A stretch of 39,762 bases of DNA, taken from the IMG/VR virus record IMGVR_UViG_2541047839_000005; one strand, written 5' to 3'. A model generated the notes under the pieces. That model ran no database searches. It worked only from the letters and a program-made list of their open reading frames with translations, and was not told the origin of the DNA. The position numbers were made by a program, and so were the translations under genes. Positions 2,645 to 18,239 of the stretch are shown one piece after another. Position 1 is the first letter of the stretch. Each line of letters starts with the position of its first letter. Origin of the DNA: a virus. Taxonomy: Duplodnaviria > Heunggongvirae > Uroviricota > Caudoviricetes.

Positions 2645-3321
2645 CGCCATTGCTCCCCAAATACAAAACCAATTTCAGCCAGTGCCTCGTCCATTTTTTC
2701 GATGAACTCCGGCACCATCTCGTCAAAACTCGCCATGTACTTTTCATTCCGCTCAATCACGACATAATGCAGGCCTTCACGCTTCATGCGCGGGTCATAG
2801 TTGGCAAAGTACCAGGCATCTTTTCGCGTCACCCACATGCTGTACTGCACCTGGGCCATGTAAGCCGATTTTATTGCCTCGAAACCACCGAGCCGGAATT
2901 TCATGAAATCCCGGGAGGTAAACGGGCATTTCAGTTCAAGGCCGTTGCCGTCACTGCATAAACCATCGGGAGAGCAGGCGGTGCGCATACTTTCGTCGCG
3001 ATAGATGATCGGGGATTCAGTAATATTCACGCCGGAAGTGAATTCAAACAGGGTTCTGGCGTCGTTCTCGTACTGTTTTCCCCAGGCCAGCGCCTTAGCA
3101 TTAACTTCCGGAGCCACACCGGTGCAAACCTCAGCCAGCAGGGTGTGGAAGTAGGACATTTTCATGTCAGGCCACTTCTTTCCTGAGCGGGGCTTTGCTA
3201 TCACGTTGTGAACTTCTGAAGCGGTGATGACGCCGAGCCGTAATTTGTGCCATGCATCATCCCCCTGTTCGACAGCTCTCACGTCGATCCCGGTACGCTG
3301 CAGGATAATGTCCGGTATCAT
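2641..3321 (-). CDS. exo: lambda exonuclease (Red alpha)
   Basis: 226 aa, essentially identical to remembered lambda Exo ([65 protein letters not shown]...). Start overlaps the bet stop. Confidence 0.95.
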
Positions 3322-4103
3322 GCTGCCACCTTCTGCTCAGTGGCTTTCTGTTTCAGGAATCCAAGAGCTTTCACTGCTTCGGCCTGTGTCAGTTCTGACG
3401 AGGCGCGAATGTCGCGGCGAAATATCTGGGAACAGAGCGGCAATAAGTCGTCATCCCATGTTTTATCCAGGGCGATCAGCAGAGTGTTAATCTCCTGCAT
3501 GGTTTCATCGTTAACCGGAGTGATGTCGCGTTCCGGCTGACGTTCTGCAGTGTATGCAGTATTTTCGACAATGCGCTCGGCTTCATCCTTGTCATAGATA
3601 CCAGCAAATCCGAAGGCCAGACGGGCACACTGAATCATGGCTTTATGCCGTAACATCCGTTTGGGATGCGACTGCCACGGCCCCGTGATTTCTCTGCCTT
3701 CGCGAGTTTTGAATGGTTCGCGGCGGCATTCATCCATCCATTCGGTAACGCAGATCGGATGATTACGGTCCTTGCGGTAAATCCGGCATGTACAGGATTC
3801 ATTGTCCTGCTCAAAGTCCATGCCATCAAACTGCTGGTTTTCATTGATGATGCGGGACCAGCCATCAACGCCCACCACCGGAACGATGCCGTTCTGCTTA
3901 TCAGGGAAGGCGTAAATTTCTTTCGTCCACGGATTAAGGCCGTACTGGTTGGCGACGATCAACAATGCGATGAACTGCGCATCGCTGGCATCACCTTTAA
4001 ATGCCGTCTGGCGAAGAGTGGTGATCAGTTCCTGTGGGTCGACAGAATCCATGCCGACACGTTCAGCCAGCTTCCCAGCCAGCGTTGCGAGTGCTGTACT
4101 CAT
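3318..4103 (-). CDS. bet: Red beta single-strand annealing protein
   Basis: 261 aa, near-identical to lambda Bet ([66 protein letters not shown]...). Confidence 0.95.
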
Positions 4104-4108
4104 CCGTT

Positions 4109-4405
4109 TTATACCTCTGAATCAATATCAACCTGGTGGTGAGCAATGGTTTCAACCATGTACCGGATGTGTTCTGCCATGCGCTCCTGAAACTCAACAT
4201 CGTCATCAAACGCACGGGTAATGGCTTTTTTGCTGGCCCCGTGGCGTTGCAAATGATCGATGCATAGCGATTCAAACAGGTGCTGGGGCAGGCCTTTTTC
4301 CATGTCGTCTGCCAGTTCTGCCTCTTTCTCTTCACGGGCGATCTGCTGGTAGTGACGCGCCCAGCTCTGAGCCTCAAGACGATCCTGAATGTAATAAGCG
4401 TTCAT
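4109..4405 (-). CDS. gam: Gam, RecBCD inhibitor (short form)
   Basis: 98 aa, near-identical to lambda GamS ([21 protein letters not shown]...[10 protein letters not shown]). Confidence 0.9.
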
Positions 4406-4543
4406 GGATAAACTCCTGAAATTTTGATGTGCGGATCCAGACAGTGCGTTAACTGCATAGTTGTTTGAATGAACTCGCTTGATTAATCAAAATGTTGGAT
4501 CACACTATGTCTTGCTCAAAATCTGATAAATAAGGTGTCTAGA

Positions 4544-4849
4544 ATGCTGATTGATAAGTTAAAGTCTTCTCCGATGTACCCAACCGCAGAAATGGGTAAG
4601 CAGTCGAAAAAGAATCATTGGTATGTAAGGGAAAAGGGGAGTGATCAACCGCAAGACCAGACCTGGAGAGCTTGGTGGGAATCTCGCTCGCTTGGCAAAG
4701 GCCATATCAATTGGAGATCTACATGCGTAGCAGAAAATGTACTCGATCCATTCAATCCGCCATCTCGGTTTGAGGTTGATTTCAAAGCCCCTGATGGGAG
4801 TATCTACAACCTTGAATTTGCTTTGGCTCCACACGGCCCAAACAAGTGA
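4544..4849 (+). CDS. hypothetical protein (Trp-rich), antisense to the early-left operon
   Basis: 101-aa ORF from ATG 4544 with AAGGTG 6 nt upstream. Not recognisable. Convergent with the next gene, stops 4 bp apart. Confidence 0.4.
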   Translation: MLIDKLKSSPMYPTAEMGKQSKKNHWYVREKGSDQPQDQTWRAWWESRSLGKGHINWRSTCVAENVLDPFNPPSRFEVDFKAPDGSIYNLEFALAPHGPNK

Positions 4850-4853
4850 GTAG

Positions 4854-5144
4854 TTAGTGGCTCAGACCACCGCCAGTACCATTCAGGTAAACCTCCACGA
4901 GCAAATCTTTTGTGTACGTTCGTTCGATGCCGCGATGCAAGTAAAGCCGACCGCGCAAATTAGCTGATGCCGTCCAGGTACCATCTTTGTGTTTAACCAG
5001 CATACCTGGCCGGACGGCACCGCGATTAACGGTCTGAGTTCCGTAATGTTGATGAACCATAAAAACTCCTGCCCGTAAGCTGGGCTGCTGAACATATAGA
5101 GACTTCTGCGCGTATTCAGGCGGTGGATGGCCGCCGGTTGTCAT
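4854..5144 (-). CDS. hypothetical protein
   Basis: 96-aa ORF. An internal start MVHQHYG at 5060 has a better Shine-Dalgarno (AGGAG). Sits where lambda carries kil/cIII/ea10/ral, but matches none of them. Confidence 0.35.
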   Translation of the reverse strand: MTTGGHPPPEYAQKSLYVQQPSLRAGVFMVHQHYGTQTVNRGAVRPGMLVKHKDGTWTASANLRGRLYLHRGIERTYTKDLLVEVYLNGTGGGLSH

Positions 5145-5505
5145 AACTAAGCCGCCTCGTTGAAGCGACTGAGGTATGAAGTGTTGAGTTGATTTCAGCT
5201 GGTCACACCGACGTTAACGCGTCCGCTTCACCCCTCGCACTCCCCGGAGCCTGCTGAAATTCAAGCTGCGGATCTAAGCGGTCATCGCAACGGCGAATCA
5301 GGTGGTTGCCGTATCGTTGTGTTGTTGCGACATGGTGATAATAGCTATTGCTATTAGTGATATCAATACTTATTGCTATTGATTGATGCATTTTGATATT
5401 AACTGTTTGATAGCAAAAGGAATTAATTTTGTGACTTGCATCGCATAGCGATAACTGAAGCGGGGGTTATGGTGGTTTTTTGAACGGTGTGTGATGAGGG
5501 GAGGC

Positions 5506-5533
5506 AAAAGAAAACCCGGCACGACGGCCGGGG
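5506..5533 (-). terminator. rho-independent terminator after the cI-operon cargo gene
   Basis: Minus strand CCCGGC-cgtcgt-GCCGGG followed by TTTTCTTTTG, starting 4 nt after the stop codon of 5537..6400. Confidence 0.5.
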
Positions 5534-5536
5534 AAA

Positions 5537-6400
5537 TCATTTCGCATCTACAATAAATAACCTGTTTATCTGGCCTTTTTTAACAGTAGCCTTTGCGGTT
5601 ATAGTGAATACTGCAGATGGATCACCTTTGGTTGATATATATGCACTAAGAGCTCTAATATACGGGTTATTCTTCTTTCCTGCAGCTGGATCGCTAATTT
5701 CAGCAGTGATTCTCTTTTTTGAGTCATCACCATCTAAAATTATTTTAGCTGTCATATTTTGTGCATCAAATTCTGTAAGAAAAGCACGATACTCACGAAG
5801 ACCGAGAACTTCATCATCATCAAGCCTATCAATTTCAGCTTTATCTCTCTCATTAACTTTTAGAAGGCAGCCGTCAACATTTGTTGCAACACTTATCTGA
5901 TCGCAAGTATTACCAATAGGTGATACTGCCTGCCTTACAGAGGGGCGAAGCTCTACAGCCATTCGGTCAATCAAAGAGATCAACTTATCAATGGTTCCAG
6001 CATCCTTGTTTCCTAGTGCCTCTATGGCCTTTTCAAGTGACTGCTGCAAAGCTTTCATTTCATCTTTCTTGTTAGAATTTCTCGCAAAAATATATTGTAG
6101 TATTGCGCCAAGTATAGTTGCGGCGATCCCCGAGAACAACTGGTTCTGAGTGGCGAAGTTAAGAACTGCTTCAAGAGTAAAGCAGTTAGCTTTTGCTTCG
6201 CGTGCGTAAACCTTAACTTCCTGATAATTAATGTATTTACTATATTTTTGTGTAACAGAGAAAGAAGCTGCTGTTGAGAGAACTTTAGAAAAACCCTTTA
6301 GGGATTCTCCTAGGCAGTTCAAATCTATTTCATGATTTAAAGCATCTTTTCCGTCATACCTAAGAGAGATTTTTATATCCTGTAAAGCGTCACAATCCAT
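5537..6400 (-). CDS. hypothetical single-pass membrane protein downstream of cI (rexAB position)
   Basis: 287-aa ORF co-oriented with cI and 66 bp downstream of it. One hydrophobic helix ([18 protein letters not shown]). Visibly more AT-rich than cI. No family recognised. Confidence 0.6.
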
Positions 6401-6466
6401 AAATCGCTCTCGTCTAATTCTAATTAAATTTACTATCCCCTAAACGACTCATCAGCACAGTGCTGA

Positions 6467-7159
6467 TTATCCATGTTTCCTGTACGTCTGGGGCATGCTC
6501 CCAATAACCTTACCGAAGATGAACACCCGGTTCATCTCGTCTTTCTCGATCGGGTCCCACGGTGAGTAGCTCTTGTTATCAGAGATAACCAGCAGCTTAT
6601 CCTTCATCATTTGCAGGCGCTTTACATGGGCGGTGTCGTCGTACAGAAACGCATAGATGCCATCACCGTCGAAAGATTTAACCGTGATATCAACGAACAG
6701 CAGATCACCTGGTTCGATCGTTCCTGACATGCTGTCACCACGCACGTTAATGATGCGGATATTTTCCGCCTTCCTGCCATCGAACATGTGACGAGCATCG
6801 TCAAACGAGTACTCAACCGAGCGTAGGACTTCTACAAACTCACGGTTGATGACTCCCGGCCCAGCACTGACTTCTATATCAAGAACGTCAATCTTGAAGT
6901 ATTTGGAATGGTTGACAGTAGGCTTCCCTGATTGTTGACCGTCATTTCTCATCGGGCCTATGCCTGATGAGAGCCACTCTGTTCGAACACCCAATGCATT
7001 AGCTATTTCAACAATTTTTGTTGAGCCGCGCGCGTTGCCGCTTGTCAGTCTCCAGATTGTGGGTTGAGCTACGCCAGACGCCTTTGCAAGAGCGCCTTGA
7101 GACATCCCAGATTGTTCCATCGCTAGGTTTAAGCGATCAGCAAGAGTTTCTTTTTTCAT
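6467..7159 (-). CDS. cI: CI-type prophage repressor (HTH_XRE plus S24 LexA-like peptidase domain)
   Basis: N-terminal HTH (LAMEQSGMSQGALAKASGVAQPTIWRL). C-terminal S24 motifs (VRGDSMSGTIEPGDLLFVD ... KRL). The ORF is open to 7216, but a promoter-like TTGACC/TATAAA lies just upstream of ATG 7159, suggesting a near-leaderless start as for lambda cI. Confidence 0.85.
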   Translation of the reverse strand: MKKETLADRLNLAMEQSGMSQGALAKASGVAQPTIWRLTSGNARGSTKIVEIANALGVRTEWLSSGIGPMRNDGQQSGKPTVNHSKYFKIDVLDIEVSAGPGVINREFVEVLRSVEYSFDDARHMFDGRKAENIRIINVRGDSMSGTIEPGDLLFVDITVKSFDGDGIYAFLYDDTAHVKRLQMMKDKLLVISDNKSYSPWDPIEKDEMNRVFIFGKVIGSMPQTYRKHG

Positions 7160-7269
7160 AAGTTTTAATTTATACGCTTGCGTATTGATGGTCAAAACAC
7201 GTTTTGCTATTGCCATGGTTAATACGCATTGCTATTATTCATTCATTGTAATACCAATAGGAATTGATA
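7160..7269. promoter_or_regulatory. immunity-region divergent promoter/operator region (pRM/pR-like)
   Basis: Intergenic region between divergent cI and cro-like genes. Contains inverted repeat ATACGC-tt-GCGTAT (7172..7185) and further ATACGC/TTGCTATT motifs. Confidence 0.5.
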
Positions 7270-7497
7270 ATGACAAATCAAACCATTCAACTCGCAATCA
7301 GTATTACAGGTAGTCAAAAACGACTGGCAGATCTATGCGGTGTAGCCCAGCCCACTGTTTGGCGTTGGCTACACGGTGGCGGAATTGATGCCCGCTATGT
7401 AATGAAAATTGTCTCAGCCACTGGTGGAAAGATTAAGCCAGCAGATATTCGTCCCGACCTCGCACCATTGTTTAACGCGAGTAATTCTGCCGCCTAA
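7270..7497 (+). CDS. cro: Cro-like HTH repressor (YdaS-like)
   Basis: 75-aa protein with HTH (QKRLADLCGVAQPTVWRW), divergent from cI. AGGA Shine-Dalgarno about 10 nt upstream of ATG 7270. Confidence 0.75.
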   Translation: MTNQTIQLAISITGSQKRLADLCGVAQPTVWRWLHGGGIDARYVMKIVSATGGKIKPADIRPDLAPLFNASNSAA

Positions 7498-7521
7498 TCT
7501 GCGGCGTTAACTGATAAGGCG

Positions 7522-8067
7522 ATGATTATGCAACCACTTACATACCAACAGACTAGCGGATTTAGCCCGACTGCGGTGATAAATCGTTCTCAAATAAAAC
7601 AGGTGCCAGGCCACGAAAAAATTCGTGATGCCGTCCGCGCCTGGTCTGCTGAAGATAATCAGGATGTAGTTGCCGCACTCATTGTGAATGAGTATCGAGC
7701 ACAGGGCGGCGGCACCATCGATTTTCCTGATGATGTCAGTCGTGCACGCCAGAAGCTGTTCCGCTTCCTCGATAACAAATTCGATTCTGAAAAATACCGA
7801 AATAACGTGCGTGAACTGACCCCGGCAATTCTGGCGGTACTACCGCTGGAATATCGCGGCCACCTGGTTGAGCAGGATAGCTTCATGGCTCGGCTGGCTG
7901 AAATGGAAAAGGAACTCAGTGAGGCAAAGCAGGCGGTCATTCTCAACGCACCACGCCACCAGAAACTGAAGGAGATGAGTGAAGGCATTGTGTCGATGTT
8001 TCGAGTGGACCCGGATCTGGCTGGTCCATTGATGGCGATGGTCACCACCATGCTGGGGGCAATATGA
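7522..8067 (+). CDS. YdaT-family / CII-like regulatory protein
   Basis: Follows cro as ydaT follows ydaS in Rac. Motifs EYRAQGGG and LTPAILAVLP resemble remembered YdaT. Start may be 7528. Confidence 0.6.
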   Translation: MIMQPLTYQQTSGFSPTAVINRSQIKQVPGHEKIRDAVRAWSAEDNQDVVAALIVNEYRAQGGGTIDFPDDVSRARQKLFRFLDNKFDSEKYRNNVRELTPAILAVLPLEYRGHLVEQDSFMARLAEMEKELSEAKQAVILNAPRHQKLKEMSEGIVSMFRVDPDLAGPLMAMVTTMLGAI

Positions 8068-8153
8068 CAGGTTCAAAAATGGCGAAAGTCGGTCTGCGGG
8101 AACAGAACCGACTTTCAGGTGCAAATCGTAACACACTCATTGCGGGAGGAATT

Positions 8154-9083
8154 ATGGCAAACACTGCTGAGATATTCAATTTTCCAGTGCCGGATGCGGC
8201 ACAAAAGGAGCCGCGCGTGGCAGATCTCGATGATGGTTATACGCGCATTGCAAATGAGTTGCTGGAAGCTGTAATGCTGGCCGGATTAACACAGCACCAG
8301 CTTCTGGTCTTCCTGGCTGTCATGCGCAAAACATATGGCTTTAATAAAAAACTGGATTGGGTGAGCAACGAGCAACTTTCCGAGTTGACCGGGATATTGC
8401 CGCACAAGTGTTCTGCTGCAAAAAGTGTTCTGGTAAAGCGTGGGATTTTTATTCAGAGCGGGCGGAATATCGGCATTAATAATGTGGTCAGTGAATGGTC
8501 AACATTACCCGAATCAGGTAAGAAAAATAAAGTTTACCTGAAAGAGGTAAATTTACCTGAATCAGGTAAAAAAAGTTTACCCAAATCAGGTAAAGACGTT
8601 TACCCGAATCAGGTAAACACAAAAGACAAACTAACAAAAGACAATATAAAACCTTTTTCGTCCGAGAATTCTGGCGAATCCTCTGACCAGCCAGAAAACG
8701 ACCTTCCTGTGGAGAAACCAGATGCTGCAATTCAGAGCGGCAGCAGGTGGGGGACAGCAGAAGACCTGACCGCCGCAGAGTGGATGTTTGACATGGTGAA
8801 GACCATCGCGCCATCAGCCAGAAAACCGAATTTTGCAGGGTGGGCTAACGATATCCGCCTGATGCGTGAACGTGACGGACGTAACCACCGCGACATGTGC
8901 GTGCTGTTCCGCTGGGCATGCCAGGACAACTTCTGGTCCGGTAACGTGCTAAGTCCGGCCAAACTCCGCGACAAGTGGACCCAACTCGAAATCAACCGTA
9001 ACAAGCAACAGGCAGGCGTGACAGCTAGCAAACCAAAACTCGACCTGACAAACACAGACTGGATTTACGGGGTGGATTTATGA
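8154..9083 (+). CDS. O: replication initiator O
   Basis: Lambda O-like N-terminus (VADLDDGYTRIANELLEA...) and C-terminus (RKPNFAGWANDIRLMRERDGRNHRDMCVLFRWACQDNFW). Contains the iteron origin. Strong GGGAGGA Shine-Dalgarno before ATG 8154. Confidence 0.9.
   Translation: MANTAEIFNFPVPDAAQKEPRVADLDDGYTRIANELLEAVMLAGLTQHQLLVFLAVMRKTYGFNKKLDWVSNEQLSELTGILPHKCSAAKSVLVKRGIFIQSGRNIGINNVVSEWSTLPESGKKNKVYLKEVNLPESGKKSLPKSGKDVYPNQVNTKDKLTKDNIKPFSSENSGESSDQPENDLPVEKPDAAIQSGSRWGTAEDLTAAEWMFDMVKTIAPSARKPNFAGWANDIRLMRERDGRNHRDMCVLFRWACQDNFWSGNVLSPAKLRDKWTQLEINRNKQQAGVTASKPKLDLTNTDWIYGVDL
8503..8660 (+). repeat. prophage replication origin: five iterons plus AT-rich tract inside O
   Basis: Five copies of about 19 bp (T)TTACCYGAAWCAGGTAA between 8505 and 8618, followed by an A-rich stretch. 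Same architecture as ori-lambda. Confidence 0.75.
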
Positions 9084-10080: not shown

Positions 10081-10147
10081 TGAAACAGGTGAGTTGATTT
10101 CAAACTGTAGTACAATTCTCTCCAGTTTGAACAGGAAAGAATATGCT

Positions 10148-10480
10148 ATGAACCCTTATATTTATCTTGGTGGTGCAATACTTGCAGAGGTCATTGGTAC
10201 AACCTTAATGAAGTTTTCAGAAGGTTTTACACGGTTATGGCCATCTGTTGGTACAATTATTTGTTATTGTGCATCATTCTGGTTATTAGCTCAGACGCTG
10301 GCTTATATTCCTACAGGGATTGCTTATGCTATCTGGTCAGGAGTCGGTATTGTCCTGATTAGCTTACTGTCATGGGGATTTTTCGGCCAACGGCTGGACC
10401 TGCCAGCCATTATAGGCATGATGTTGATTTGTGCCGGTGTGTTGGTTATTAATTTATTGTCACGAAGCACACCACATTAA
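10148..10480 (+). CDS. emrE: SMR-family multidrug efflux transporter EmrE
   Basis: 110 aa from MNPYIYLGGAILAEVIGTTLMKFSEGF, matching E. coli EmrE (a known DLP12 cargo gene). Four TM helices. Confidence 0.9.
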   Translation: MNPYIYLGGAILAEVIGTTLMKFSEGFTRLWPSVGTIICYCASFWLLAQTLAYIPTGIAYAIWSGVGIVLISLLSWGFFGQRLDLPAIIGMMLICAGVLVINLLSRSTPH

Positions 10481-10510
10481 AAATAATTTGTTTCTAAACG
10501 ACTAAAATAT

Positions 10511-10551
10511 GGAGGCTCTTATATTTATATGAGCCTCGTTTTATGCTTTTT
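10511..10551 (+). terminator. rho-independent terminator downstream of emrE
   Basis: GAGGCTC-ttatatttatat-GAGCCTC followed by GTTTTATGCTTTTT. Confidence 0.6.
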
Positions 10552-10736
10552 GTTAATGTCTTTATTTTTTTATGTATTCTTTTGTGCTTTCAAGATTATG
10601 GCGTAAGAAAATTGCAATACGATTATTGTTGTATATTCAAGATAATGTGACCTTAATTGTCTTTTTAAATAAAAATTAAACAAAAATTATATCTCACCAC
10701 TAAGGTTTATAAAAGCATACGTTAGCAGGTGTCACC

Positions 10737-12263
10737 ATGAAAAAAGCCATAGCATATATGCGATTTTCATCACCAGGTCAGATGTCTGGCGACTCATTAA
10801 ACCGACAGAGAAGACTTATTGCTGAATGGTTAAAGGTAAATAGTGATTATTATCTTGATACCATAACATATGAAGATTTAGGATTAAGTGCATTCAAAGG
10901 AAAGCATGCACAATCAGGAGCTTTTTCGGAATTTTTAGATGCTATAGAGCATGGTTATATATTGCCAGGAACTACATTGTTAGTTGAAAGTCTGGACAGA
11001 CTTTCAAGAGAAAAAGTCGGTGAAGCGATTGAGCGTCTGAAATTGATTTTGAATCACGGTATTGATGTTATAACTCTTTGCGATAATACAGTCTATAATA
11101 TTGACTCTTTGAATGATCCATATTCATTAATAAAAGCCATACTTATAGCACAAAGGGCAAATGAAGAAAGCGAGATAAAGTCAAGTCGGGTTAAATTATC
11201 ATGGAAGAAAAAACGGCAGGATGCACTGGAGTCAGGCACGATTATGACGGCGTCTTGTCCGAGATGGCTCTCCTTAGATGACAAAAGAACGGCTTTTGTT
11301 CCAGACCCCGACAGGGTGAAAACTATTGAGCTAATTTTTAAACTCAGGATGGAAAGGCGCTCATTGAATGCAATAGCCAAGTATTTAAATGATCATGCTG
11401 TAAAGAATTTCTCAGGAAAAGAAAGTGCATGGGGACCTTCTGTAATTGAAAAATTATTAGCGAATAAAGCTCTGATAGGTATATGCGTACCTTCATATCG
11501 TGCAAGAGGTAAAGGAATAAGTGAAATCGCTGGCTATTATCCCAGAGTCATATCAGATGATTTGTTTTACGCTGTGCAGGAAATTCGGTTGGCACCTTTT
11601 GGTATTAGCAATAGTAGCAAAAATCCTATGTTGATAAATCTACTTCGAACAGTTATGAAGTGCGAGGCTTGTGGTAATACCATGATTGTTCATGCGGTAT
11701 CTGGAAGTTTGCATGGCTATTATGTTTGTCCGATGAGAAGACTGCATCGATGTGACAGGCCATCAATAAAGAGAGATTTGGTTGATTATAATATCATTAA
11801 TGAGTTGCTTTTTAATTGTAGTAAAATCCAACCAGTTGAAAACAAGAAAGATGCTAATGAAACTTTAGAGTTGAAAATTATTGAGCTCCAGATGAAAATT
11901 AATAATTTAATTGCTGCATTATCTGTTGCGCCTGAAGTTACCGCTATAGCAGAAAAAATCAGAGTATTAGATAAGGAATTACGAAGGGCTTCTGTATCAT
12001 TAAAAACTTTGAAGAGTAAAGCGGTGAGCTCACTTGGTGATTTTCATGCTATTGACTTAACCAGTAAAAATGGGCGAGAGCTATGTCGTACACTTGCCTA
12101 TAAAACATTCGAAAAAATCATAATCAATACAGATAATAAAACCTGTGATATCTATTTTATGAATGGCATTGTTTTTAAACACTATCCTTTAATGAAAACA
12201 ATATCCGCCCAGCAGGCGATAAGTACTCTCAAATATATGGTTGATGGTGAGGTTTATTTTTGA
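10737..12263 (+). CDS. ybcK: large serine recombinase (YbcK-like)
   Basis: 508 aa. N-terminal resolvase/invertase catalytic domain (AIAYMRFSSPGQ ... SLDRLSR), recombinase domain, Cys-rich zinc ribbon (CEACGN...CPMRRLHRC), coiled-coil tail. Same size and position as DLP12 ybcK. Confidence 0.85.
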   Translation: MKKAIAYMRFSSPGQMSGDSLNRQRRLIAEWLKVNSDYYLDTITYEDLGLSAFKGKHAQSGAFSEFLDAIEHGYILPGTTLLVESLDRLSREKVGEAIERLKLILNHGIDVITLCDNTVYNIDSLNDPYSLIKAILIAQRANEESEIKSSRVKLSWKKKRQDALESGTIMTASCPRWLSLDDKRTAFVPDPDRVKTIELIFKLRMERRSLNAIAKYLNDHAVKNFSGKESAWGPSVIEKLLANKALIGICVPSYRARGKGISEIAGYYPRVISDDLFYAVQEIRLAPFGISNSSKNPMLINLLRTVMKCEACGNTMIVHAVSGSLHGYYVCPMRRLHRCDRPSIKRDLVDYNIINELLFNCSKIQPVENKKDANETLELKIIELQMKINNLIAALSVAPEVTAIAEKIRVLDKELRRASVSLKTLKSKAVSSLGDFHAIDLTSKNGRELCRTLAYKTFEKIIINTDNKTCDIYFMNGIVFKHYPLMKTISAQQAISTLKYMVDGEVYF

Positions 12264-12374: not shown

Positions 12375-12692
12375 ATGGATGCTGGCGTTCTCGTTCTAGC
12401 AGTTCAACAATCCCCAATCACAAAACAATTCACTGATAACGAACTTTGCACACTCGCCTGGTTATGGCGAGCAGGGAATGTGATGTTAATTGCCTACCAG
12501 AACGTTACTCATCTTCTTCAGGATGCGGAGCATGGTGAAGCTGGTCACTTCACTTCCATCGAGCAAGAATATCCCCAGATACTCAACAGAGCGCGAGCAA
12601 TCCTCGTCCGAGAAACGGCACATGTAAAACTTCAGCCGTGGCAGGATGATAAGTGGAGTCGAGTATTGCCGTATTTGCGTCAAATCTGTTAG
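12375..12692 (+). CDS. hypothetical protein
   Basis: 105-aa ORF between ybcK and the 309-aa cargo gene. No recognisable motif, so it may be non-coding. Confidence 0.3.
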   Translation: MDAGVLVLAVQQSPITKQFTDNELCTLAWLWRAGNVMLIAYQNVTHLLQDAEHGEAGHFTSIEQEYPQILNRARAILVRETAHVKLQPWQDDKWSRVLPYLRQIC

Positions 12693-12896
12693 GAGTATAG
12701 CCGCCAGCCATGAGTGTTGTATTAAAACAAGGATGTCTATATATGGGATAGCGAGAGTATGAATATCAGTTATTTTGAGAGTTAACTGATTGTGAAATTA
12801 GTTTTTTTCACAAACGAGTGGGGTTACTATGATGAGTGTTCTAATGCATAGGGAACACCTAATTTTTTCAATGAATTCAAATTGATAGGATCAAAA

Positions 12897-13826
12897 ATGG
12901 CACAACAGAGAACTACCTCCCTCAGATCCATACCTTTAGACTTAGATGTTAAGCAAGAGGCTGTCATTAACGGTATAGAAATGGGGGTACTCGATAACGG
13001 AATTCCGTACCTTACTCAGAATGGGTTGGCAAATGTTTGTGGTGTTCAGCGTTTGCGAATCAAGGAAATTACCGATGAGTGGGCTCAATCTGTTGAGAAC
13101 GGTATTTTCAAAAAAGGAAGAATGACTTTTATTGGTACATATCTTCTTAATGAAGGTTTTACAGATGAAAAACTTTATATACCAATAATTCGAAATGGTG
13201 TTGAGTACCATGCTTATCCAGATGTTGTATGCATGGCTATACTTGAATACTATGCCTTTGAAGCAAAACAAGCAGAAAGTGAGACTGCAATTAGATCTTA
13301 CAGAGAGCTTGCTAAAAAAGGCCTCAAGACATTTATATACGAGGCGCTAAAATATCAACCGGAGGACCCGTGGAGGCATTACCATGACAGAGTATCTTTA
13401 TTAAAAGATAAGGGAACCATACCTGATGGGTATTTCATTATATTTAATGAAATTGCAGGTATGATGGTAGATCTCATCAATGCTGGATTAGCGATTAATC
13501 AGCATACCGTACCTGATGGCAGTGTTGGTTCTTGCTGGGCGCGTCACTGGAAAGCAAAGGGGTTAGCAACAGAATTTGGAGAAAGAGTAGACTGTGAGCA
13601 TTATTACCCTGAAGATTTTCTTCAGGCAAGTTCCAATCCTCAGATCATTAATGCCTATCCTGATTCTGCATTGTCAGAGTTTCGTAGATGGTTTAAGCAT
13701 GAATATTTAACCACAAAGTTCCCACCGTATATTCTTAAAAAATCAAACGTGCTTCCTGGTGGTACAGAAGATGCTAATCGTCTGATAGAAGCTTTCAAAA
13801 AATCAGAGCTAGAAAATAAACCATAA
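12897..13826 (+). CDS. hypothetical cargo protein (309 aa), nin-region cassette
   Basis: ATG 12897 with AGGA about 6 nt upstream. AT-rich. Occupies the slot filled by ybcL/ybcM in K-12 DLP12. Family not recognised. Confidence 0.6.
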   Translation: MAQQRTTSLRSIPLDLDVKQEAVINGIEMGVLDNGIPYLTQNGLANVCGVQRLRIKEITDEWAQSVENGIFKKGRMTFIGTYLLNEGFTDEKLYIPIIRNGVEYHAYPDVVCMAILEYYAFEAKQAESETAIRSYRELAKKGLKTFIYEALKYQPEDPWRHYHDRVSLLKDKGTIPDGYFIIFNEIAGMMVDLINAGLAINQHTVPDGSVGSCWARHWKAKGLATEFGERVDCEHYYPEDFLQASSNPQIINAYPDSALSEFRRWFKHEYLTTKFPPYILKKSNVLPGGTEDANRLIEAFKKSELENKP

Positions 13827-15511: not shown

Positions 15512-15868
15512 ATGCGTGATATGTATGAAGTAATGGATCGTTGGGGAGCTTGGGCTGCTTCAGACAATAGCGGAGTGGACTGGCAGCCGATAGCGGCTGG
15601 TTTCAAGGGACTTTTACCTCATGGCAAAAAGTCACGGATTCAGTGTGATGATGACGAAGGCATCATGATAGACAGTTGTGTGGCTCGGTTGAGAAGGTAT
15701 AAACCAGAGGAATATGAGCTCATCATCGCCCACTTTGTTATCGGTATCTCATTACGCACTATTGCGAAGAAGAGAAAATGCTCTGATGGCACAATTAGGA
15801 AGGAACTGCAAACTGCAATGGGGTTTGTTGACGGCTGTTTAGCAATGTTAGCTTATAGTATGGCATAA
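15512..15868 (+). CDS. quuD: late-gene antiterminator Q (QuuD-like)
   Basis: MRDMYEVMDRWGAWAAS...WQPIAAGFKGLLP... resembles phage-82/DLP12-type Q. Position is between rusA/ylcG and the lysis cassette. GGAGAAAG Shine-Dalgarno. Confidence 0.7.
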   Translation: MRDMYEVMDRWGAWAASDNSGVDWQPIAAGFKGLLPHGKKSRIQCDDDEGIMIDSCVARLRRYKPEEYELIIAHFVIGISLRTIAKKRKCSDGTIRKELQTAMGFVDGCLAMLAYSMA

Positions 15869-17062
15869 AAAATAAAATAGATTTACTGCCGATTTTTCAA
15901 AAAAGACTGGGAACTGTTTATATCCAACGTAAATAAGGCCTCCATAAAACATGGCTGATGCGAGATATTTAACAGTTCTCATCCTTTTTTTAGCTTTATC
16001 AATCAAACCTGTAATGCTACTCTTAATACTATCTGCATTATCTTTGATTTCTTTATTTTCTTCAAACTTTAAATACTTATCGAAAGCGGACTCCACTCGA
16101 GAACGTAAGTTGTCGAATGTTTCATTGAATATCTCAATAGAAATGTAATTGACTTTTTTTATCATCCAAAGTCCTGCGATAATCAATATTGCTTCGGTTG
16201 TTTCATTAGCCTTCACTAAGCCACCAGCTGCTATTAATGCACCGGGAATAGTCAATGCTTTTGTCTGATTAGATGATATGAATTCGTTAATTTTACTCGT
16301 GAACTCAAGATTTTTCTCATCGAGTTCGTTAAGAATTTTATTTACAGAAAACCTCTTTGTGTAAATCTCATATAGTTCATCATATTTTTTCCTGACGAGT
16401 TCAGTAGAGTTAAGCAAGTCAAAGAAATTGAACGTACCATTTGCTTTAAATACTTCGTTTATGGCTGAGCGTATAACGAGCTTGCGCTCGCTTTTGTGTA
16501 AATCATTGATTTTTATTGTGTCGAGAAGCTCCTTTATAATTTCATATTTAAGAGACGAGTTCGATAAGCGATTAATCTCGCTATATTGTAAAAAATGCGT
16601 GAGTTCGACTGTATAACTTTTGTCTTCATTGGTGAAAAATAAGACAGAGCAGTCACTGTTATGATGATCAGCAATTAATGAAAGGATATCTTTCCACATA
16701 AAGAAAATATGGATTTTTTCGATGCTTTCATTCTTAGAAGTAGGGAGTATTAACGGCGTTCCGATGATATAATTTTTCGGAAGAGCGTTTTGGGTGTTTA
16801 CTCTAGACCAAAAAGACTCAACATTCTCATAAATTATAGCATCATCCCAAGATGAAGCTTGGCGATCTAGCCAAATTTCATTATTTTCGATGCAGGTTGT
16901 TGCCTTTTTATAACCTATAGATTGTAACAGTCTAATTATTTCAGAACTATTTACAATAACAATGCTTTCTTCAAGACTTATGACAGTGTAGTAGCCCTCA
17001 ACTCTGCTTGAGGCTCCGTTAATAATCTGCGCTAATCTTGATAAGTCATCAGCAATTGTCAT
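15848..17062 (-). CDS. hypothetical membrane protein, second gene of the Q-to-holin cargo operon
   Basis: 404 aa. About 260-aa soluble N-terminal region, then hydrophobic helices (ALTIPGALIAAGGLV, AILIIAGLWMI, LASAMFYGGLIYVGY). Start ATG 17062 lies 2 nt after the upstream gene's stop. Very AT-rich. Confidence 0.65.
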   Translation of the reverse strand: MTIADDLSRLAQIINGASSRVEGYYTVISLEESIVIVNSSEIIRLLQSIGYKKATTCIENNEIWLDRQASSWDDAIIYENVESFWSRVNTQNALPKNYIIGTPLILPTSKNESIEKIHIFFMWKDILSLIADHHNSDCSVLFFTNEDKSYTVELTHFLQYSEINRLSNSSLKYEIIKELLDTIKINDLHKSERKLVIRSAINEVFKANGTFNFFDLLNSTELVRKKYDELYEIYTKRFSVNKILNELDEKNLEFTSKINEFISSNQTKALTIPGALIAAGGLVKANETTEAILIIAGLWMIKKVNYISIEIFNETFDNLRSRVESAFDKYLKFEENKEIKDNADSIKSSITGLIDKAKKRMRTVKYLASAMFYGGLIYVGYKQFPVFFEKSAVNLFYFLCHTIS

Positions 17063-17064
17063 TA

Positions 17065-18239
17065 TTAGCTGTCTCTATATCTTTTGAGTTCATCATAATT
17101 TGCCTGACTCAATTTTATCACAATTTCGCATTTGTTGTCAGTGAGAATTACAGGCTTATTTGACTTTTCGTCTCCAATAGCTCCACGCATTATTTTCAAC
17201 TTAAAATTATTGTCGTTATCTGCCACTTCAATTGTAAGCGCGCTTTCAGCTGCTTTAGGAGTTGGTTCAAATTGAGGGTCAATCTGGAAACCATTAAGAT
17301 TAACAAAATCGACAAACGTTCCCTTACATTTGTGTGAATCAGTCAGGCATGAGTCAATTATTTTTGAAATATCCTCTATCTTAACGGACTTATTTCCGTG
17401 TTTATCTTTTGATTTTTTTCCAGTAAGGATTTAACTTCATTGTCAATAGTATCACGCAGTACACGACCGAGTGAGTTTTTACTAGCAAAAATATCTATAG
17501 CACTGAATAATTGCTGAATGCTTCTTTTATTGTCCGAATCATGTCGGCAACCTAATGAGTCTTTGAAAAAATCGCTTTTAGATTTACCTTGCAAGAAATG
17601 TACATATGAGTCACCCTTGTTTTCTGGATAACTGGCTTCGAATAAAGTTAAATCGAACATCGCAGCCTGCCGTAAGGCATCGGTATTAATTGGATTTAAT
17701 CTTGTTGGGGTCAACTTATCCGAATCAAAGTCATAGGCGCTTTGTTTATCAACCATTACGATTAGAAGTTTCCCCAAATCCTCTGGTTCGGTAGACTTAT
17801 AGTGGATGAAAACAACGCTCCCCCCCTGAAGTTGGGCAACTCTCGATTCGTTATTAGCATTATGTTTAAGCTTCTCTATTATAGCTCTAGATAAATCAAT
17901 GAATTCATTATTCTTATTAATGTATTTTTTTAGGATCGTAGGAATGGATGAAGGGTTGTGATCTGAGTCTAGGAAGTTATGAAATTTGTTTTTTCGGCTA
18001 AATTTTTTCTCAATTCTGGTTATGAATTCAGATGTGACTTCATTTTTTAGATCCCAAACTTCACCTAATCGATAATCAAATGCTCTTGAATCATTTTTTT
18101 CAAGATTTGCTGTTACAGCACCAATAGGAAAGTACGATTGTTTGCCCAGCACTACAACATGAGGCGTGGCACCGCATTTATCGCAAGCTACAGTTGGGTC
18201 GTCAAGAACATTGCCACATTCTAAACAAGTTATATCCAT
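17065..18239 (-). pseudogene. zinc-ribbon plus NdpA/YejK-like protein, reading frame broken at a homopolymer
   Basis: N-terminal CxxC..CxxC zinc ribbon (CLECGN...CDKCG). Central region resembles remembered nucleoid-associated YejK (GGSVVFIHY...LLIVMVD; YVHFLQGKSKSDFFKDSLG). The ORF stops at 17376, but a second frame stays open from the T7 run (plus 17411..17417) to TAA 17065..17067 and encodes a YejK-like C-terminus. Confidence 0.6.

Follow-up and report, generated by a model that had tools for sequence, protein, structure and literature searches.

What does a lambdoid prophage keep between its repressor gene and its left operator? The question is raised by a 39,762-nt window, the whole stretch of DNA analyzed, from a Caudoviricetes prophage (IMG/VR record IMGVR_UViG_2541047839_000005; coordinates are window positions unless a locus or phage is named). 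Here an open reading frame (ORF) of 287 aa with an ATG start, which we call the cargo gene of the cI-oL slot, occupies positions 5537..6400, stop codon included, on the minus strand. We found that the cargo gene is a horizontally exchanged "moron" cassette with the repressor gene on one side and the immunity terminator/oL on the other, and, judging by its position, we lean toward an anti-phage protein that works alone, would be made in the lysogen, and would protect it against other phages.

The cargo gene lies 66 bp behind, and on the same strand as, a cI-type repressor gene (6467..7159, minus strand), as an earlier note on this DNA had described. Counted from the RefSeq start at 7159, the repressor has 230 aa (the longest ORF reaches 7216); it contains HTH_3 and Peptidase_S24 domains and also matches repressor PHROG 4. 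Only 4 nt past the cargo-gene stop codon begins the stem of an intrinsic, t-imm-like terminator that closes the cI-cargo unit (5505..5532, minus strand), consisting of six G-C pairs (CCCGGC-cgtcgt-GCCGGG at 5532..5515) followed by TTTTCTTTTG. Its fold of -17.7 kcal/mol (z = -3.3) was equaled in stability by 0 of 200 shuffles, confirming that the ORF ends at a terminator, and the ORF list holds no second gene between the two. Upstream of cI, the promoter scan called a pRM-like promoter (TTGACC-17-TAAATT, 7167..7195, minus strand) with a -10 element ending 7 nt before the ATG at 7159, which suggests that the cI message may be leaderless like the lambda pRM transcript.

Operator-like repeats flank this unit. 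At oR (7169..7236) they lie at 7169-7186, 7196-7211, and 7221-7236, 25 bp apart, and are overlapped by a pR-like promoter (7210..7238, plus strand); at oL/pL (5338..5380) they lie at 5340-5355 and 5365-5380 and are overlapped by a leftward promoter-like site (TTGATA-17-TATTAT, 5366..5338). On both the oL and the oR side of the cargo gene, the 16-nt repeats end in ATTGCTATT. The cargo gene therefore sits within the immunity region, and the gene order reads oR/pRM, cI, cargo gene, terminator, oL/pL, kil, gam, bet, exo. Because the cargo gene follows cI on the same strand across a 66-bp spacer (6401..6466) in which promoter scanning and folding detected neither a terminator-like element nor a sigma-70 promoter match, it most likely shares one lysogen transcript with cI, which would start at the pRM-like promoter and stop at 5505-5532. 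The spacer overlaps a small hairpin that covers the stop codon of cI (6451-6467, without a U-tract), and by eye it offers only a TAGAAT hexamer resembling a -10 element, without a -35 element and without a call in the scan, so we rejected an independent sigma-70 promoter there. An Rfam scan of 4300-8200 returned nothing meaningful.

The two genes of the unit differ in composition. The cargo gene has 38.3% GC, with 29% at third codon positions (GC3), while cI has 47.5% (GC3 52%) and the window 47.1%. The earlier note had remarked on this AT-richness and read it as separate acquisition, which is supported both by the composition and by the presence of the same cassette behind at least 25 unrelated repressors, as described below.

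Comparison with other phages showed that the slot itself exchanges its contents. The flank at 5400-5534 (135 nt), which includes the terminator hairpin, is 87-96% identical in eight coliphages without the cargo gene, so that the terminator is part of the conserved flank and not of the cassette. Roughly 1,050 E. coli genomes also have this flank. The cI genes of two of the phages were compared: those of PhiR30_1 and Perceval proved 99% identical to that of the window, and both phages combine the common flank with other genes in the slot: PhiR30_1 carries a pair of 141 aa and 310 aa corresponding to the PADLOC candidates PDC-M63A/B (E 8e-36 and 4e-42, respectively), and Perceval carries a 340-aa protein and a 168-aa protein annotated as transmembrane. 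Other occupants are pairs of 341 aa plus 149 aa in PhiR68_2 and 357 aa plus 125 aa in IdasGreatGrand, and a HipA-like pair in PhiR5_1. The cargo intervals in the related coliphages are 3645-4999 (L098), 3641-5191 (L099), 2734-4189 (L105), 2748-4321 (L106), and 2720-4148 (L107). Five different two-gene cargos thus occur in the slot, and the sizes of three of the pairs (about 340-357 aa plus 125-168 aa) recall those of RexA and RexB. Because phages with near-identical cI genes and this terminator/oL flank differ in what lies between them, the stretch from cI to the terminator/oL is, on this comparison, a swappable cargo site and a hotspot. This swapping is the strongest support for the "rexAB slot" proposed in the earlier note, which is further borne out by lambda rexA-rexB and phi80 40A at the same position. 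The bstA gene has the same architecture, and its region has been described as a hotspot of mosaicism (PMC8585504).

The phi80 gene 40A (PHI80_46, AFV29182.1) deserves closer comparison. A tblastn search of phage genomes aligned it to residues 1-285 of the cargo protein with 62% identity over 99% of the length; it has the same two Pfam domains and the same position, in the order pRM - cI - 40A - oL/pL. The phi80 map places cI at 3154-3864, 40A at 4001-4867, and oL at 5163-5248, against cI at 6467-7159, the cargo gene at 5537-6400, and oL at 5340-5380 in the window. With homology over the full length and a place on the repressor strand between the repressor and oL/pL, 40A is a positional orthologue of the cargo gene. 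Phi80 differs in its repressor, its operators, and its spacer (136 bp, against 66 bp here), and has an N gene after pL, whereas none is evident in the window. The 1988 record X13065 splits the phi80 gene into 40A and 40B, and UniProt P14817 is a truncated early model of 40A. Pfam did not bear out the "acetate kinase superfamily domain" that GenBank lists for 40A.

We then asked how firmly the cassette is linked to repressors, using 97 loci pooled from viral contigs, genomes, and exact-protein look-ups and taking, for each homologue, the closest ORF that lies upstream on its strand. These neighbors fell into 37 clusters at 80% identity; Peptidase_S24 was present in 25 of them and HTH_3 in 23, and two further clusters were short helix-turn-helix proteins. 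No fewer than 25 distinct S24 repressors precede the cassette in E. coli, Morganella, Mannheimia, Neisseria, and Vitreoscilla. In Morganella prophages it is accompanied by either of two repressors and by differing replication modules, and the homologue in a Vitreoscilla prophage, behind an S24 repressor, is 49% identical. Exceptions also occur: one homologue is found in a Serratia island flanked by AlpA and insertion sequence (IS) elements without a repressor neighbor, one at a prophage end behind lysis genes, and one convergent to the repressor of another prophage. As the position is kept while the repressor varies, and as repressor-free sites exist, the cassette is, across the sampled loci, mobile cargo that prefers the repressor operon and is tied to no particular repressor.

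Two of these loci contain additional genes. In the Vitreoscilla prophage (L011, 6661-8274), the homologue is followed by a SIR2-domain gene that matches PADLOC PDC-S25 (E 2e-142) and also ThsA, so that two candidate defense genes are stacked in this slot. In the Serratia island, the homologue (65% identity; L005, 5921-6843; also L006 and L007) is followed by two conserved small ORFs of 147 and 160 aa without Pfam or PADLOC matches; they are absent from the prophage contexts and may be accessory partners.

The cargo gene had been called unrecognized in the earlier note, a description that does not hold. Its product matches Pfam DUF7946 over aa 11-191 (5828..6370, minus strand; E 3.8e-55, 187.2 bits) and then DUF7947 over aa 201-287 (5540..5800, minus strand; E 1.4e-18, 67.1 bits), both above the gathering cut-off of 27 bits, and it matches PHROG 5147, for which no function is given, over its full length (E 1.5e-178). 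Together with the annotation of the phi80 member as 40A since X13065, this means that both the family and its phi80 representative had been catalogued before, with a function assigned to neither. The gene is real, under purifying selection, and more than a chance ORF, because comparison with copies of 79-85% nucleotide identity gave a dN/dS of 0.03-0.06 and its family has 494 representatives at E <= 1e-3 in a library clustered at 50%. Among the best 150 representatives, nearly all full-length members have 265-320 aa and match the whole profile, which indicates one common architecture. The family occurs in Enterobacterales, Pasteurellaceae, Neisseriales, Burkholderiaceae, and one Helicobacter prophage. 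The identical protein is present on at least 1,000 contigs, always labeled hypothetical or DUF7946, the cassette is found at >=99% identity in 77 of 5,426 complete E. coli genomes, and the gene is common in clinical and animal isolates of Enterobacteriaceae. A few copies on E. coli viral contigs may be frameshifted or truncated alleles: in L057, L058, and L064 the tblastn match spans 862 nt, not 861, and L090 matches residues 1-161 only.

This distribution bears on a rival that we consider improbable: that the gene is a moron serving host fitness or virulence without any link to phages, which alters stress tolerance, the cell surface, or colonization and simply uses the constitutive repressor promoter. 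The low GC3 relative to cI, the borrowed cI promoter, and the end of the unit at the terminator would all suit such a moron, as would its wide presence in clinical and animal isolates, and bstA, from the same slot, was first linked to virulence phenotypes. Nevertheless, the protein shows neither a signal peptide nor a lipobox and no signature of an adhesin or enzyme, and the other occupants of the slot are defense candidates or toxin-type pairs. Moreover, the family spans hosts with very different lifestyles, which argues for a phage-directed rather than a niche-directed role.

The predicted structure addresses the next question, whether the cargo product is a membrane protein with a single central hydrophobic helix, as had been claimed. 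AlphaFold2 (AF2) gave a mean predicted local distance difference test (pLDDT) score of 77 with 22 sequences and of 92 with the 118 sequences of our family alignment, the latter with a predicted template modeling (pTM) score of 0.76. Secondary structure in the model comprises strands at residues 9-16, 62-66, and 74-82 and helices at 27-50, 87-108, 112-128, and 134-150. The DUF7946 domain was thus modeled as an alpha/beta part, a beta-sheet with a long helix, followed by the hydrophobic helix (87-108) and a helical hairpin (112-128 and 134-150). The C-terminal DUF7947 domain was modeled as a five-stranded beta-barrel that is superimposable on known oligonucleotide/oligosaccharide-binding (OB) folds and, by structure comparison, resembles single-stranded DNA (ssDNA)-binding proteins. 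No fold match in the PDB to the DUF7946 domain rose above the OB-fold matches, sequence searches of the PDB with the 22- and 118-sequence profiles yielded nothing below E 0.02, and Foldseek against BFVD returned only uncharacterized viral proteins. The profile and structure searches that the earlier note had recommended therefore identified a family and an OB fold and left the N-terminal domain without a PDB match.

In the 118-sequence alignment, residues conserved in at least 90% of members are only G17, S33, G36, P161, G163, D237, P238, and Y247, and no catalytic-type combination of His, Asp, Glu, Lys, or Cys is conserved across the N-terminal domain. Because the conserved N-terminal positions are small or structural residues and the OB domain keeps a DP...Y motif, this pattern argues for a binding or assembly protein and not for an enzyme.

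One hydrophobic segment does exist, at aa 88-106 (6083..6139, minus strand). Its mean Kyte-Doolittle value is 1.85, with no other 19-residue window above 1.0, and its Eisenberg mean hydrophobicity is 0.72 with a low hydrophobic moment of 0.19. Judged by this one protein, the segment resembles a transmembrane helix, and both hydrophobicity scores favor insertion. A constitutive inner-membrane superinfection-exclusion protein, anchored by this segment with one domain in the periplasm and the other in the cytoplasm, and blocking DNA entry, a receptor, or a translocon in the manner of P22 SieA or HK97 gp15, would account for these values, for the lack of charge in the helix of all 13 closest homologues (>=41% identity) and of 36 of the next 47, and for R108, K111, and K112 after the helix, which fit a C-in orientation. 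However, a simple sum on the Hessa scale gives a borderline value of +1.6 kcal/mol, and the helix lies midway in a single Pfam domain and in a model that is compact and confident throughout one chain, where a 3-residue turn joins it directly to the highly charged helix 112-128. An N-out orientation would also require export of an 86-residue acidic or neutral domain without a signal peptide. Among the distant tier, the last 58 of the 118 sequences, the aligned helix has at least one charge in 49 and at least two in 44, with the amphipathic, 3.6-residue hydrophobic periodicity of a soluble fold. Hydrophobic residues recur at columns 88/89, 92/93, 96/97, 100/101, and 104/105, and the positions between them are charged in 10-29% of members. 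The segment is thus neither charge-free across homologues nor a separator of independent domains, as a bitopic anchor would be.

Because the helix is charged and amphipathic in distant relatives and lies inside a compact domain, it is, as far as the alignment and the model can tell, an amphipathic helix that packs within a soluble fold. Its outer face appears to have turned small and apolar (S90, G91, A94, T95, G98, A99, Q102) in the near clade, to which the cargo gene and 40A belong. Such a face would suit a constitutive bitopic anchor less well than a contact surface between identical subunits or a helix that acts on membranes when conditions expose it. We regard it as nearly an even call that the protein is a soluble oligomer; a constitutive integral membrane protein seems unlikely, and conditional or peripheral membrane association slightly more so. 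The single hydrophobic segment of the earlier note therefore stands, the membrane assignment is doubtful, and we give constitutive membrane exclusion as a function little credence.

The OB fold also invites an explanation in which the protein modulates the lysis-lysogeny switch or induction of its own prophage, sensing ssDNA or DNA damage and tuning repressor cleavage or the lytic transition. A switch-tuning role has been proposed for lambda RexA. Such a modulator would share the expression of the cI operon, its fold would resemble ssDNA-binding proteins, and its frequent partners, the S24-type repressors in 25 of the 37 neighbor clusters, are of the RecA-cleavable type. Against it, one cassette serves many unrelated repressors and operators, it also occurs away from any repressor (in the AlpA/IS island and at the prophage end after the lysis genes) or convergent to one, and homo-immune phages without the cassette carry other cargo in its place. 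We find this role, too, hard to favor. A selfish addiction or toxin element that stabilizes the prophage by killing cells that lose it is the least credible proposal, since the possibly toxic hydrophobic helix and the HipA-like toxin pair in the same slot of PhiR5_1 are outweighed by a gene that is single in most contexts, without an adjacent antitoxin-sized partner, would be co-expressed with a stable repressor, and matches no toxin-antitoxin family. A type II toxin-antitoxin module was likewise rejected: no small co-oriented partner adjoins the gene here, in Morganella, in Vitreoscilla, or in phi80, and small downstream ORFs are present only in the Serratia island.

Protection of the lysogen against other phages is consistent with the place that the gene shares with lambda rexAB and phi80 40A and with the occurrence of its family at other prophage accessory sites and in the AlpA/IS island, independent of any one repressor. 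Lambda RexAB likewise lies between cI and oL and is expressed with cI in the lysogen, as we presume for the cargo gene, and RexA (279 aa) is close in size to the cargo protein (287 aa). The division of labor between RexA and RexB may be likened to the sensor plus membrane or assembly effector logic that we propose. There is no family relationship: alignment of the family profile by hhalign gave a probability of 0.2% for RexA and likewise 0.2% for RexB, and no polytopic partner gene adjoins the cargo gene.

BstA offers a second comparison, as a single lysogen-expressed gene straight behind the prophage repressor, with its own Rho-independent terminator and with diverse repressors (PMC8585504). 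It has no homology to the cargo protein, which the PADLOC BstA model misses; the cargo protein lacks a KilA-N/ANT-like DNA-binding domain, and no aba-like self-immunity element was identified. The same prophage also encodes a BstA homologue of 314 aa in its nin region (12882..13826, plus strand; PADLOC BstA, E 3.8e-121), downstream of an ORF with a P22AR C-terminal domain (12375-12692, plus strand). This validated abortive-infection family thus occurs here in the nin region and not in the cI-downstream slot of its description.

The only PADLOC model to match the cargo protein is PDC-S42, an unvalidated single-gene defense candidate, and the match is weak and partial (E 1.5e-4, 19.3 bits, profile positions 4-113 of 302), covering about one-third of the profile and leaving the C-terminal OB domain unmatched. 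Thirty-six of the 118 family members match the same model, with a best E of 3.2e-8. Like PDC-S42, whose match falls in the N-terminal 110-180 residues, PHROG 3243/13337 and the NCBIfam LAPAL_fam are of similar length (275-302 aa) and weakly similar to that part of the protein; in NCBIfam, only a sub-threshold LAPAL_fam match was obtained. These matches probably reflect a distant N-terminal relationship and not membership. In kind, the cargo gene would be a repressor-operon accessory gene like RexAB and BstA, and it appears unrelated in family to both and to the validated PADLOC v2 families. What is new is the recurrent, repressor-linked, swappable cassette, the OB fold at its C-terminus, and an N-terminal domain without a PDB match.

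As a stand-alone anti-phage protein, the cargo product could work as follows. The C-terminal OB fold would recognize an infection cue, either a nucleic acid or a phage protein. The N-terminal DUF7946 domain, in which the family shows no conserved candidate catalytic residues, would be the effector and would act through the apolar helix, which would either mediate self-assembly or insert conditionally into the inner membrane. The outcome would be abortive infection or exclusion, comparable in function to a RexA sensor and a RexB effector on one chain. We infer each of these steps. Rotman et al. reported that phi80 lysogens do not plate T4, without naming the responsible gene (PMC2885432), and 40A is, cI aside, the gene whose location most favors expression in the lysogen, which is why we suggest it as the source of this phenotype. 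A more far-reaching version, which we put forward as speculation and think improbable as a whole, is that DUF7946/DUF7947 is a new and widespread one-protein abortive-infection family of repressor operons, in which the OB sensor frees a shielded apolar helix that oligomerizes in or inserts into the inner membrane, and that 40A is the determinant of T4 and P1 interference by phi80 lysogens.

Several points weigh against a defensive function. No validated defense family in PADLOC v2 matches the cargo protein, and literature searches for DUF7946, DUF7947, PF25678, PDC-S42, 40A, or the protein accessions retrieved no papers. The position in the slot is suggestive only, as cargo in this place may serve other ends than defense, and virulence phenotypes had earlier been associated with BstA (PMC8585504). 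An OB fold alone does not indicate sensing, co-transcription with cI, deduced from the layout of the unit, is a weak point, and the T4 phenotype of phi80 could stem from another prophage gene.

Other features of the prophage were noted along the way. Between the pL-like promoter and kil (4854-5144), the stretch at 5145-5337 holds no N-like antiterminator ORF, at a position where phi80 and lambda have N; this pL leader of about 190 nt could house an RNA-based (put-like) or other antitermination device, and Rfam found none there. Between gam and kil, a 104-aa ORF (4535-4849, plus strand) runs opposed to the leftward operon; it matches PHROG 16212, whose function is not known (E 1e-69), and is a hypothetical protein in RefSeq. 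Two minus-strand ORFs amid the rightward late genes may form a further cargo module: one (15848-17062) encodes a 404-aa protein without a Pfam or PADLOC match, and the other (17376-18239) encodes a protein with an NA37 nucleoid-associated-protein domain (E 1e-21) that is identical in length to the cargo protein (287 aa) and otherwise unrelated to it. After ren, an emrE-like small multidrug resistance (SMR) transporter and a large, ybcK-like serine recombinase (10094-12263) follow as in DLP12, and E. coli N68 carries an identical prophage region at tRNA-Arg next to folD, the DLP12 site.

In conclusion, the slot between cI and oL of lambdoid phages, which had already yielded RexAB and BstA, has in the DUF7946/DUF7947 family another recurrent occupant. 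If it truly serves in defense, the protein would act without homology to validated systems and through an N-terminal domain that matches no solved structure, and it would provide a gene-level explanation for the failure of T4 on lysogens of phi80, one of the commonest laboratory prophage contaminants. Should the gene give no phage phenotype, it would still mark a site of cassette exchange, from the end of cI to the immunity terminator, that is useful for mining prophage cargo.

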